DNA of 64,000 nucleotides from Burkholderiaceae bacterium. Lineage in GTDB: Bacteria; Pseudomonadota; Gammaproteobacteria; Burkholderiales; Burkholderiaceae_C. The notes beneath the pieces are model-generated. The model had not been told where the DNA came from. It saw only the letters and a list, made by a program, of their open reading frames with translations, and searched no databases. The stretch is taken from positions 56,737 through 120,736 of the forward strand of contig JAEUOU010000006.1 in NCBI GenBank assembly GCA_016790575.1, read 5' to 3'. Shown here piece by piece: positions 23,073 to 27,643 of the stretch (positions within the stretch are counted from its first letter, which is position 1; every line of letters starts with the position of its first letter). The translations under genes were made by a program, and so were the position numbers.

Positions 23073-24152
23073 TCAGCGGCTGGCGGTGATCGTGAGCAAT
23101 GGCCTGCCAGCGCCAGGGGCGACAGTCCCCACCACCGCCGCCTCCCCAAACCCCCCATTCCGAAACACCGCCAGTACGTTGTCGACGACCTCGGGCGCAC
23201 ATGCCACCAGCAGTCCGCCGCTGGTTTGCGGGTCGGTGAGCAGGGCGCGGTCGGCTTCGGCGAAGTCTTCGGGCACGGTGACGTCTGCGCCGTAGCCGGC
23301 CCAGTTGCGGCCGGAGGCGCCGGTGACGATGCCGCGTGCGGCCAGGTCGCGCACACCGGGCAGCAGCGGCACGTGGCTCCAGTCGATGTGCACCTGCGTG
23401 CCCGAGCCCCGGGCCAGTTCCAGTGCATGTCCGGCCAGGCCAAAGCCGGTGACATCGGTCAGCGCATGCACGCCCGCCAGGGCGGCCAGGGCGGGGCCCG
23501 GCGTGTTCAGGCGGGTGGTGGTGGCGATCATGCGGGCGTATCCGTCCGCATCCAGCTGTTCTTTCTTCAGCGCTGCCGACAGCACCCCGACCCCCAGCGG
23601 TTTGCCCAGTACCAGCACGTCACCGGGCCGGGCGTCGGCGTTGCGTTTCACCCGCCTGGGGTGCACCAGTCCCAGGGCCACCAGGCCGTAGATCGGTTCG
23701 ACCGAGTCGATGGTGTGGCCGCCCGCAATCGGTATGCCCGCCGCGCGGCACACCGACGCGCCGCCCTCCAGGATTTTGGCTATGGTCGCCGTGGACAGCA
23801 CATTGATGGGCATGCCCACCAGGGCCAGCGCCATGATGGGTGTGCCGCCCATGGCGTATACATCGCTGATGGCATTGGTGGCCGCGATGCGCCCGAAATC
23901 GAACGGGTCGTCCACGATGGGCATGAAGAAATCGGTGGTGGCGATCAGCGCCTGTTCGTCATTGAGCTGGTAGACGGCGGCGTCGTCGGCCGTCTCGATG
24001 CCGACCAGCAACTCCTTGGGTACCGGCATCTGGGTTGTGCCCTTGAGGATGTCGGCCAGCACGCCCGGGGCGATCTTGCAGCCGCAGCCACCACCGTGCG
24101 ACAGGCTGGTCAGGCGCGGTTCGGCGCGGGGGGTGTCGGCAGTCTGGGTCAT
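23073..24152 (-). CDS. selD: Selenide, water dikinase (selenophosphate synthetase, SelD; SenC-like context)
   Basis: LTSLSHGGGCGCKIAPGVL N-terminal Cys motif and a PurM-like body. AGGAGA RBS upstream. The ATG overlaps the upstream gene's stop (ATGA). Confidence 0.9.
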   Translation of the reverse strand: MTQTADTPRAEPRLTSLSHGGGCGCKIAPGVLADILKGTTQMPVPKELLVGIETADDAAVYQLNDEQALIATTDFFMPIVDDPFDFGRIAATNAISDVYAMGGTPIMALALVGMPINVLSTATIAKILEGGASVCRAAGIPIAGGHTIDSVEPIYGLVALGLVHPRRVKRNADARPGDVLVLGKPLGVGVLSAALKKEQLDADGYARMIATTTRLNTPGPALAALAGVHALTDVTGFGLAGHALELARGSGTQVHIDWSHVPLLPGVRDLAARGIVTGASGRNWAGYGADVTVPEDFAEADRALLTDPQTSGGLLVACAPEVVDNVLAVFRNGGFGEAAVVGTVAPGAGRPLLTITASR

Positions 24153-25159
24153 GGGTGTTCTCCTGAAAGGGGGGCTTGCGCGGTGCGCAGCGATTGCAGC
24201 AGGGCGGCGCGTTCGGATTCGGGCGCGAACAGGCTCGCGCGGAGCCCGCATTGTGCGTGCAAAGCGGCCAGGATGTCGGGCAAGTGGCCGCTTTGCCCTG
24301 CACGCGCCTCGCGCAGCAGCTTTGCCAGGGCGTCGGCGTCGCCCTGCGGAAAATAGCCGCCATAGCCGGCGCCCAGCATGCCGACATTGCCCGGGATGTG
24401 CGAGGCCAGCACCGGCGTGCCGCTGCAGACGGCTTCCATGATCACATGCGCGCCGCCTTCCATCCGGCTCGGGTGCAGCAGCACATGGGCCTGCTGGATG
24501 CGGCGACGTGCCTGAGCATGGGTCATGCCACCCAGCCAGCGGTAATGGGGGCAGACGGCGGCGGTTTGCTGCGCGGCGGCGCCCAGCGCCGGGTCCAGCG
24601 CAAGCCCGATATGGTCGATGGTGATGCCGTCGTGCGGGGAGAGCAGGCGCGCCGCGGCGAAGATCGTCTGCGGGCTTTTTTCGTCGCGCAAATGGCCGAC
24701 CACCACGGCGCGCAGGCGGCGGCCCGTTTTGGCCAGGGTCTGGCGGCTGGTGGTGGACTGCACCACCACGTCACACCGGGACCGCAGCCTGGCCGGCAAC
24801 GCCAGCGCGCCCTGGTCCTGCAGCACGATCAGGCGGGTCGCCAGGCGCAGCGAACGCTGCGCGTCGCGGTCGGTTTCGATATCGCGGTAAAGGTCGGTGC
24901 CGGTCAAGGCCACCACCAGGGGCCTGGCGGGATGGGACAGCGCCCAGGCGGCAATGCTGGCAGCCGACCTCCGGGCGTGCAGGGCCAGCAGCAGCGCTGC
25001 CGGTTGCTTCGCCTCGGCGGCATCCGGCCAGCTGGCGGCCAGGCGCACCGCATAATGGTCGCGCAGCAGGCGCGACCAGCGGCGCGCGGTTTGCCAGTTG
25101 CCGTTGTTGGCGTCGGCCAGCGCGGGCGTTACCAGGCACAACGAGGGCTTTGACGACAT
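24149..25159 (-). CDS. senB: GT-B glycosyltransferase of the selD-associated type (selenosugar synthase SenB-like)
   Basis: LCLVTPALADANNGNWQTARRW N-terminus, VVGHLRDEKSP, and LLHPSRMEGGAHVIMEAVCSGTPVLA (EX7E-type GT4 motif). Translationally coupled to selD. The 5' extension of the ORF track (to 25585) is an Arg/Ser-rich artefact. Confidence 0.75.
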   Translation of the reverse strand: MSSKPSLCLVTPALADANNGNWQTARRWSRLLRDHYAVRLAASWPDAAEAKQPAALLLALHARRSAASIAAWALSHPARPLVVALTGTDLYRDIETDRDAQRSLRLATRLIVLQDQGALALPARLRSRCDVVVQSTTSRQTLAKTGRRLRAVVVGHLRDEKSPQTIFAAARLLSPHDGITIDHIGLALDPALGAAAQQTAAVCPHYRWLGGMTHAQARRRIQQAHVLLHPSRMEGGAHVIMEAVCSGTPVLASHIPGNVGMLGAGYGGYFPQGDADALAKLLREARAGQSGHLPDILAALHAQCGLRASLFAPESERAALLQSLRTAQAPLSGEHP

Positions 25160-26578: not shown

Positions 26579-26644
26579 TCCCTTGGCAGGCCTGTTTGGG
26601 GTCGGTCGGACCAGGCCGGGCCCTTGGCCGAAGGGGCAGTGCCT

Positions 26645-27643
26645 TCAGACCGGTGCCCAGAACACGCTGAACCAGCCACGCGGGTCACTCCAGTGGGTGG
26701 CGGGGCCGAAACCTGCCGCGGTCAGCAGGGACCGGAAGCGCTCCGGCGTCCATTTGTAGGAGTTTTCGGTATGCAGGCGTTCGCCCGCGACGAAGCGGCG
26801 CTCGCCGCCGGGCCAGCGAACCGTCTGGGCGCCGTCCGATTCCAGGTGCATTTCGATGCGTGATTCGGCGCTGTTGTAGAACGCCACATGGCGCCAGCGG
26901 GCGGGCGCGAAGTCCGATCCGAGCAGGGCATTGACGTGCAGCAGCAGGTTGCGGTTGAAGGCGGCCGTCACGCCCAGCGCGTCGTCGTAGGCGGCTTGCA
27001 GCACGCCGTGGTCCTTGACCTGGTCCACACCGATCAGCAGGCCGCCACCCGGCCCACCGGCGCGGCACAGCGCATGCGCCTGCCGCAACAGGGCCAGGGC
27101 GCGCTCGGGGGTGAAGTTGCCGATGCTGGAGCCCGGGTAGAAGACACAGCGGGGCGCCTGCGCCCGATGCTGCGTGGCGAGCCATTCCTGCGCCGCGTCG
27201 GGCAGGGCCAGCGTCTGCGAAAAGTCCAGCCCCAGCCCCAGCATGGGCAGGGCAGGGTGGCGCTGCTGCAAGGCGGCGAGCGTGTGGCGCAGGAAATCCA
27301 CCGAGATGTCCACCGCCACGTACGCGCCCACCTGCAGCGGCGCGAACAGCCGCGCGGCTTTGGCACAGTTGCCGGCCCCCAGGTCGATCAGCACCGCCGC
27401 CGGCGGCAGCACCCGGGCCATGTCGGCGATGCCTGCGTCGAAAATGCCGGCCTCGGTGCGGGTGGGGTAGTACTCGCCCAGTTCGGTGATGGCGTCAAAC
27501 AGGCACGACCCCAGCCGGTCGTAGAAGAATTTCGGCTCGGCGCGTGCCGGCGTGGCCAGCAGGCCCTCGGTCAGCTCGGTACGGAGGGCCTCGGTGTCGG
27601 GCCGATGGAGCTGCAGGAAACGGGGGGCGTCTGAGGCGGGCAT
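26645..27643 (-). CDS. egtD: L-histidine N-alpha-methyltransferase (hercynine synthase, EgtD)
   Basis: PKFFYDRLGSCLFDAITELGEYYPTRTE, LIDLGAGNCAKAARL, and C-terminal HTENSYKW. Confidence 0.85.
   Translation of the reverse strand: MPASDAPRFLQLHRPDTEALRTELTEGLLATPARAEPKFFYDRLGSCLFDAITELGEYYPTRTEAGIFDAGIADMARVLPPAAVLIDLGAGNCAKAARLFAPLQVGAYVAVDISVDFLRHTLAALQQRHPALPMLGLGLDFSQTLALPDAAQEWLATQHRAQAPRCVFYPGSSIGNFTPERALALLRQAHALCRAGGPGGGLLIGVDQVKDHGVLQAAYDDALGVTAAFNRNLLLHVNALLGSDFAPARWRHVAFYNSAESRIEMHLESDGAQTVRWPGGERRFVAGERLHTENSYKWTPERFRSLLTAAGFGPATHWSDPRGWFSVFWAPV

Follow-up and report, generated by a model that had tools for sequence, protein, structure and literature searches.

Results

Gene content of the locus

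The stretch of DNA analysed in this work, called the window below, comprises 64,000 nucleotides of a contig assigned to a Burkholderiaceae bacterium (GenBank assembly GCA_016790575.1, contig JAEUOU010000006.1, positions 56,737 to 120,736). Between its positions 23073 and 27643 lie four genes, senC (selD), senB, senA and egtD (Table 1), and a preliminary description made from the letters alone had proposed that they form a pathway leading through a selenosugar to selenoneine, the selenium analogue of ergothioneine. A map of the open reading frames (ORFs) and their translations recovered all four genes at the coordinates and on the strands assigned to them in that description, and every ORF of the locus was intact. 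Gene calls were judged against the NCBIfam equivalog models with their curated cutoffs, against Pfam domains and against the closest structures in the PDB; for the comparison of residues, the PDB sequences were rebuilt from HMMER alignments and then realigned. The identities of the genes, their signature residues, the arrangement of the operon and the conservation of gene order were established directly, and all of the pathway chemistry is carried over from characterised homologues. As judged from the sequence, 23073-27643 is very probably an intact, orthodox selenoneine (sen) biosynthetic locus of a Comamonadaceae bacterium related to Hydrogenophaga.

Table 1. Coordinates of the sen genes and of neighbouring features in the window
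Feature	Position	Strand	Evidence or remark
senC (selD), selenide, water dikinase making selenophosphate	23073-24152	-	NF002098, TIGR00476, PDB 3u0o
senB, Se-glycosyltransferase (selenosugar synthase), GT-B/GT4	24149-25159	-	TIGR04348, SenB structures
senA, selenoneine synthase (non-haem iron selenoxide synthase)	25158-26426	+	NF041186, SenA structures; alternative GTG start at 25191
egtD, L-histidine N-alpha-methyltransferase (hercynine synthase)	26645-27643	-	TIGR03438, 351 bits (cutoff 291); PF10017, 322 bits
Putative selenate ATP-binding cassette (ABC) importer	27857-31255	+	Four genes between egtD and egtB
ABC substrate-binding protein	27857-28723	+	TIGR04553 "putative selenate ABC transporter substrate-binding protein", 358 bits (cutoff 250)
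ABC ATPase	28745-29587	+	PhnC-like
ABC permeases	about 29661-30431 and 30428-31255	+	PhnE-like
SMR-family small transporter	31283-31636	+	SugE/Qac-like matches of 57-77 bits, below cutoffs
Class I S-adenosylmethionine (SAM) methyltransferase, 209 aa	31661-32290	+	Generic models only
egtB, canonical type II ergothioneine sulfoxide synthase (sulfur pathway)	32287-33603	+	TIGR03440, 560 bits (cutoff 360)
Seven-gene tightly packed set	42629 down to 34899	-	Members listed in order in the text
ATP-grasp protein	36414-37805	-	AlphaFold model, mean confidence (pLDDT) 85
TIGR03169 "N-terminal-to-SelD" pyridine nucleotide-disulfide oxidoreductase (flavoprotein)	37802-38941	-	355 bits (cutoff 310)

The locus brings together what defines a sen cluster: a selD homologue, a TIGR04348 glycosyltransferase and an EgtB homologue encoded side by side, an overlap of the selD ORF with the TIGR04348 gene, and a source of hercynine in the adjacent EgtD, whose position next to senA had been correctly described. 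When compared with characterised SenA, SenB and SenC, all three proteins passed the corresponding models or closest-structure tests.

The senC product scored 542 bits with the SelD model NF002098 (cutoff 299) and 436 bits with TIGR00476, and E. coli SelD (PDB 3u0o) matched it with an E value of 1e-98. Its N-terminal GGGCGCK aligned with GAGCGCK of that structure, which contains the GCGCK loop with the catalytic Cys and Lys. The longest selD ORF reaches position 24251, and the conserved protein begins with MTQTADTP. Direct reading of the minus strand (...GAACACCCATGACCCAG..., also written ...GGAGAACACCCATGACCCAG...) corroborated that this gene overlaps the stop of the glycosyltransferase gene by an ATGA: the senB TGA (24151-24149) and the selD ATG (24152-24150) share these bases, and a GGAG lies upstream. 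This overlap supports the sen identity of the pair, because genes overlapping selD were the criterion behind the discovery of the family (Kayrouz and Seyedsayamdost 2022, bioRxiv 10.1101/2022.04.13.486033).

The senB product begins with MSSKPSLCLVTPALADANNGNWQ, scored 431 bits with the SenB equivalog TIGR04348 (cutoff 300) and contained the Pfam domain Glycos_transf_1, in agreement with its assignment to the GT-B glycosyltransferases; the motif quoted for it, LVTPALADANNGNWQ, was present, and the E-x7-E motif reads MEGGAHVIMEA. Variovorax paradoxus SenB (PDB 8fbx, 8jjq, 8k5u) matched with E 3e-112 and 60% identity. The proposed catalytic Lys was kept (K161, equivalent to K158 of V. paradoxus), as were N20, H58, T83, G84, Q131 and R155, which include the proposed contacts to selenophosphate. 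Two contacts to the sugar or nucleotide were changed, R22 and T214 of V. paradoxus being replaced by Gln and Ala, respectively.

With the SenA equivalog NF041186 the senA product reached 493.5 bits (cutoff 420), and it was matched by V. paradoxus SenA (PDB 8ryz, 8k5i) with E 3e-118, 399 bits and 55% identity. It had been presented as a DinB-like plus FGE-sulfatase protein encoded head-to-head with the senC-senB pair. Pfam identified the FGE-sulfatase domain and did not detect DinB_2 at E <= 0.001; the N-terminal His ligands nevertheless aligned with the DinB domain of the solved EgtB and SenA structures. The residues that the SenA structure paper puts forward as criteria were all found, namely the three-His triad (H68, H166 and H170, equivalent to H71, H167 and H171 of V. 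paradoxus), the catalytic Tyr (Y372, V. paradoxus Y363) and the hercynine-contacting Asn (N404, V. paradoxus N395). In addition, R87 and D416 of MthEgtB are replaced by His and Phe, the two changes that, according to the discovery preprint, set all SenA apart from EgtB. Since type II EgtB also has Phe at the position of D416, only the Arg-to-His change discriminates between SenA and the type II enzymes.

The view of this protein as a paralogue, with differing motifs, of a canonical EgtB encoded 6 kb away was borne out. The two window proteins are 30% identical, the motifs WELGHVGWFADWWI and WHLAHTTWFFETF were present as quoted, and egtB lies 5.9 kb from senA. Apart from its TIGR03440 score (Table 1), the window EgtB retained R87, was 60% identical to the cysteine-using EgtB of Chloracidobacterium thermophilum (PDB 6o6l, 8qf6; E 3e-145) and reached 353 bits with the SenA model NF041186, under its cutoff of 420. 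Its GTG start at 32287 overlaps the stop of the small methyltransferase gene (GTGA); an automatic gene call instead places the start at the ATG at 32368, which would remove conserved N-terminal residues.

Relatives and conserved gene order

A scan for SenA, with one genome per species, returned at least 520 relatives, the best of which was 69% identical and came from an uncultured Hydrogenophaga. Synteny was followed by tblastn over the 80 loci kept, 44 of which come with about 10 kb of flanking sequence in each direction (long-flank loci). Throughout the 80 loci the senC-senB pair was divergent from senA wherever both genes were present. The senC-senB/senA core with egtD beside it recurred across these loci. 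Among the long-flank loci, egtD came directly after senA in 38, and in about 25 the same four ABC genes followed it. The exact gene order of the window, small methyltransferase and egtB included, was shared by three Hydrogenophaga metagenome-assembled genomes (loci L028, L032 and L040).

Three further loci (L014, L015 and L016) carry SenA-like genes of 58-60% identity with an adjacent egtD, and no senB or senC was detected beside senA. In L014 and L016 the stretch free of senB and senC covers 10 kb upstream; the L015 contig measures 2,956 bases, 339 of them upstream of senA. These genomes may hold senB and senC elsewhere, or may have a variant arrangement.

Positions 23981-47810 of the window recur, at 99.0-99.2% identity, in two JGI metagenome contigs (samples 3300042200 and 3300042201) and, at 100%, in a Logan contig from SRR10555718. 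These copies imply that the locus is intact and was independently assembled several times. As the best SenA in a reference genome was only 69% identical, the source would be an uncultured Hydrogenophaga relative with no species-level representative in the genome collection searched.

Overlapping divergent starts of senB and senA

The ATG of senB (25159-25157, minus strand) and that of senA (25158-25160, plus strand) share one palindromic CATG at 25157-25160. In a heuristic comparison of start codons over 78 loci, the gap between the two starts had a median of 0 nt and was below 60 nt in 76. Exactly this CATG arrangement was seen in 16 loci, with Comamonadaceae and Rhodocyclales both represented (L002, L004, L005, L007, L015, L017, L020, L024, L028, L032, L040, L048, L069, L070, L078 and L079). 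In Comamonadaceae, the Shine-Dalgarno sequence of senA, GAGGG, lies inside conserved N-terminal codons of senB. The alternative GTG start of senA, which an automatic gene call uses, is preceded by GGAGG. With either start of senA there is no intergenic space for a promoter, which suggests that the promoters of senB and senA each lie inside the opposite gene.

A scan of 22-40 kb for consensus promoters and terminators gave counts not above those of shuffled sequences. In an alignment of the region between egtD and the binding-protein gene from 36 loci, only a -10-like G.T.TAAT was conserved and no clear operator was seen.

Discussion

The pathway and its known relatives

We propose a route modelled on the reconstituted V. 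paradoxus system. SenC would phosphorylate selenide to selenophosphate, from which SenB, translationally coupled to it, would place selenium onto a UDP-sugar to give a 1-seleno-sugar. Histidine would be trimethylated by EgtD to hercynine, and the non-haem iron enzyme SenA would couple the selenosugar oxidatively to hercynine at C2; the selenoxide so formed would then lose the sugar spontaneously, yielding selenoneine. The adjoining ABC system would probably import selenate, and the single egtD probably also supplies the type II EgtB for the synthesis of ergothioneine. The sequence of events put forward at the outset, from selenosugar to selenoneine, is supported by the equivalog models and closest structures, the substitutions in SenA, the Lys of SenB and the adjacent egtD.

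This pathway is already known, having been discovered, reconstituted and structurally characterised between 2022 and 2024, and the gene layout is usual in related bacteria. Kayrouz and Seyedsayamdost came upon the cassette in a search for genes that overlap selD ORFs. They counted more than 800 cassettes, demonstrated selenoneine production by V. paradoxus and an Amycolatopsis, and reconstituted the pathway, with SenC forming selenophosphate, SenB the selenosugar and SenA coupling it to hercynine before selenoxide elimination (bioRxiv 10.1101/2022.04.13.486033). In V. paradoxus, the preferred sugar donor of SenB is UDP-N-acetylglucosamine. The preliminary description named this 2022 report of the SenA/SenB/SenC architecture rightly, but its emphasis was misplaced: as those counts and the number of SenA relatives returned by our single scan show, the cassette is not rare. 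The 2022 paper also already draws hercynine from the egt pathway, reports a co-localised egtD in a "small subset" of clusters and places a putative selenate transporter close to many of them. In contrast to that small subset overall, co-localisation of egtD is the majority state in the clade studied here.

The senABC genes of V. paradoxus DSM 30034 resemble those of the window in encoding the same three enzymes, with the same overlap of the selD and senB ORFs and the same catalytic and signature residues; in both, EgtD supplies hercynine, and a canonical egtB is found in the same genome. They differ in belonging to another genus, at the sequence distances given above for SenA and SenB and with the R22Q and T214A changes in the latter, whereas in the window the locus itself physically includes egtD and a selenate-type ABC transporter.

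Some points weigh against the assignment of the locus to selenoneine synthesis. That this organism produces selenoneine is a prediction. The substitutions R22Q and T214A of SenB imply that its preferred UDP-sugar could differ from that of V. paradoxus. The service of selD to the sen genes alone was judged from the 64-kb window, and expression is presumed for two genes that leave each other no intergenic promoter space.

Accessory genes

Several neighbours of the sen genes recur in related loci. The pair formed by the SMR-family transporter and the small SAM methyltransferase was found beside sen, egtD or egtB in 10-11 of them, in differing arrangements; as a speculation, it might take part in the export or methylation of histidine betaines. 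On the minus strand, the seven-gene set encodes, in order, a VTT/DedA-fused flavin adenine dinucleotide (FAD) disulfide reductase, a DUF547 protein, a DUF3047 protein, the TIGR03169 oxidoreductase, the ATP-grasp protein, a YHS lipoprotein and a patatin. The first four of these sit upstream of senC instead in Hydrogenophaga genomes.

In seven Rhodocyclales sen loci (L042, L048, L058, L069, L070, L078 and L079) the SelD region, next to senB, has a TIGR03169 domain as its immediate neighbour. In one of them, L070, both are contained in a single ORF of 790 aa (6680-9052, minus strand) that scored 519 bits with TIGR03169 and 289 bits with the SelD model (cutoff 125), and a standalone TIGR03169 copy lies less than 10 kb from senA in 11 further loci of the 44. 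By the domain-fusion argument, the fusion in L070 suggests that the standalone gene of the window works with SenC; its product is a probable accessory enzyme, which could plausibly serve in the reduction of selenium for SenC.

In L070, one operon (11155-14239, minus strand) contains the ATP-grasp, YHS and egtD genes, each stop overlapping the next start, and the gene order is the same in L069 and L078. The AlphaFold model of the window ATP-grasp protein was closest to L-amino acid ligases (3vot, BacD/YwfE and RizA), with E values of about 1e-18, TM scores of about 0.6 and 13-16% identity. A sequence search of the PDB turned up no informative relative for the ATP-grasp, YHS or small methyltransferase proteins. 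All homologues listed for the ATP-grasp protein were closely related to it and bore no other name than "ATP-grasp domain-containing protein" or "biotin carboxylase". No link of ATP-grasp, YHS or TIGR03169 to selenoneine was found in the literature searched. Shared ancestry of these genomes, which are mostly from Burkholderiales and Rhodocyclales, may explain part of the accessory synteny.

These observations raise the possibility, which we hold tentatively and with more doubt than confidence, that in this lineage the three-gene sen core is the centre of a larger selenium neighbourhood, reshuffled and yet kept together, whose accessory members join the pathway and in which the promoters of senB and senA are mutually buried. 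In such an arrangement the TIGR03169 flavoprotein may deliver reduced selenium to SenC, and the SMR transporter and small SAM methyltransferase may export or Se-methylate the betaine. The ATP-grasp protein and the YHS lipoprotein, translationally coupled to egtD in Rhodocyclales, are further candidates.

Alternative readings

Carried one step further, the same genes would make selenoneine a mere intermediate, which the small SAM methyltransferase, the SMR transporter and the ATP-grasp ligase convert or export as a derivative, for example Se-methylselenoneine or an amide conjugate. Such a derivative is suggested by the recurrence of the SMR-methyltransferase pair, by the overlapping stops and starts of the ATP-grasp, YHS and egtD genes in Rhodocyclales and by the resemblance of the ATP-grasp model to L-amino acid ligases. 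We consider it unlikely: the accessory genes are missing from most sen loci (the methyltransferase was present in 10 and the ATP-grasp gene in 14 of the 44), the V. paradoxus three-gene set with EgtD was sufficient in vitro (bioRxiv 10.1101/2022.04.13.486033), no sequence feature links these enzymes to selenium or to a betaine substrate, and some of the synteny may reflect the common descent mentioned above.

It is still less probable that selD encodes a general selenophosphate synthetase serving mainly selenocysteine (Sec) or 2-selenouridine systems encoded elsewhere, with an incidental linkage to senB. The Sec (selA/selB/selC) and selU systems do use the same selenophosphate donor enzyme, the inspection covered only 64 kb of the genome, and the window holds two families whose members in some species are selenoproteins, the YHS lipoprotein (NF041384) and ArsS (TIGR04167). 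Against such a general role, the gene that overlaps selD here is senB, the 4-bp ATGA coupling between them is conserved, and selD adjoins senB in 40 of the 44 long-flank loci. The genes specific to the other systems were also missing, as had been claimed for the window: as tblastn queries, E. coli SelA, SelB and SelU matched neither the window (best E 0.6) nor the flanks of the 80 related loci, ARAGORN found no tRNA gene in the window and hence no tRNA-Sec, and an Rfam scan of the window gave no match. As a proxy for Sec decoding, in-frame TGA codons were sought, and the YHS and ArsS copies of the window as well as all YHS homologues of the related loci proved to be Cys forms without any. A dual role of selD would moreover be compatible with the sen function. 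The term "orphan" that had been applied to this selD thus holds for the 64-kb window and does not extend to the genome as a whole.

The assignment of 25158-26426 as a selenoneine synthase has as its competitors an ovoselenol-type synthase (OvsA) and an ordinary thiol-using EgtB paralogue, either of which would give a product other than selenoneine, and we regard them as highly improbable. The ovs clusters (OvsA, OvsM; PMC11030361) also carry the senB and senC selenosugar cassette, and their non-haem iron selenoxide synthase and the window protein belong to one superfamily; the window protein matches OvsA structures (133-142 bits) and EgtB (about 129 bits). These scores are far below the 399 bits of the SenA structure. 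OvsA uses histidine instead of hercynine, selenylates C5 and has a Met/Gln/Ala motif, and its clusters contain an N-pi-methyltransferase and usually no egtD; the window has Tyr/Asn/Phe, with the hercynine-binding Asn-Phe (RNFF) and the Tyr identical to those of V. paradoxus SenA, an adjacent egtD and no OvsM-type N-pi-methyltransferase. OvsA was excluded by this substrate motif, the weak match and the presence of egtD. The canonical ergothioneine genes, in turn, share EgtD with the sen genes, and their EgtB, as represented in the window by the 32287-33603 protein, belongs to the same family of DinB plus FGE-like folds as SenA; the senA product, however, passed the SenA model and failed the EgtB model TIGR03440 (234.5 bits, cutoff 360), has His in place of the thiol-binding Arg87 and is paired with SelD and SenB rather than with a sulfur donor pathway, so the EgtB reading was rejected. 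A reading as a pseudogene was likewise discarded.

As a selenoneine locus, then, 23073-27643 adds one more orthologue of a pathway that the NCBI annotation models already name automatically. What it predicts is that an uncultured Hydrogenophaga relative, present in several metagenomes, can make selenoneine and ergothioneine from one pool of hercynine. Novelty is possibly limited to two features, the accessory genes conserved near sen clusters and the overlap of the divergent senB and senA starts, neither of which was found connected with selenoneine in the literature searched; both could inform studies of how the pathway is supplied with selenium, of export and of its regulation.

Other contents of the window

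Divergent from the seven-gene operon, a module that is complete for "arsenosugar biosynthesis" by NCBIfam naming occupies 42857-46088 on the plus strand. It encodes an MTAP-like phosphorylase, the radical SAM protein ArsS (TIGR04167, 455 bits) and TIGR04283 and TIGR04282 transferases, with no arsM adjacent; several Hydrogenophaga loci likewise have a TIGR04283 transferase in the neighbourhood of the FAD-reductase gene. An ORF at 45423-46130 on the minus strand was discarded, as it had no family match and the genes at that place run on the plus strand.

Beyond this module, 46222-48704 (minus strand) encodes a maturation system of the bufferin type for a copper-binding, ribosomally synthesised and post-translationally modified peptide, made up of the MNIO enzyme BufB (316 bits, cutoff 310), an HvfC-like partner and a DoxX/HvfX-like protein. 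Genes for a TlpA-like thiol:disulfide protein and an extracytoplasmic function sigma factor adjoin it at 48945-50151.

At the other end of the window, 1-22208 holds about 21 genes, all on the plus strand, with a G+C content of 0.45-0.58 as compared with 0.66-0.73 in the rest of the window. They encode synthesis of sugars of the pseudaminic or legionaminic acid type (PseG, PseI and a LegC-family aminotransferase), an AsnB-like amidotransferase, an acyl-CoA ligase and a polyprenyl-phosphate sugar transferase. The likely reading of this region, which stops just short of the sen locus, is a surface-glycan island gained by horizontal transfer.

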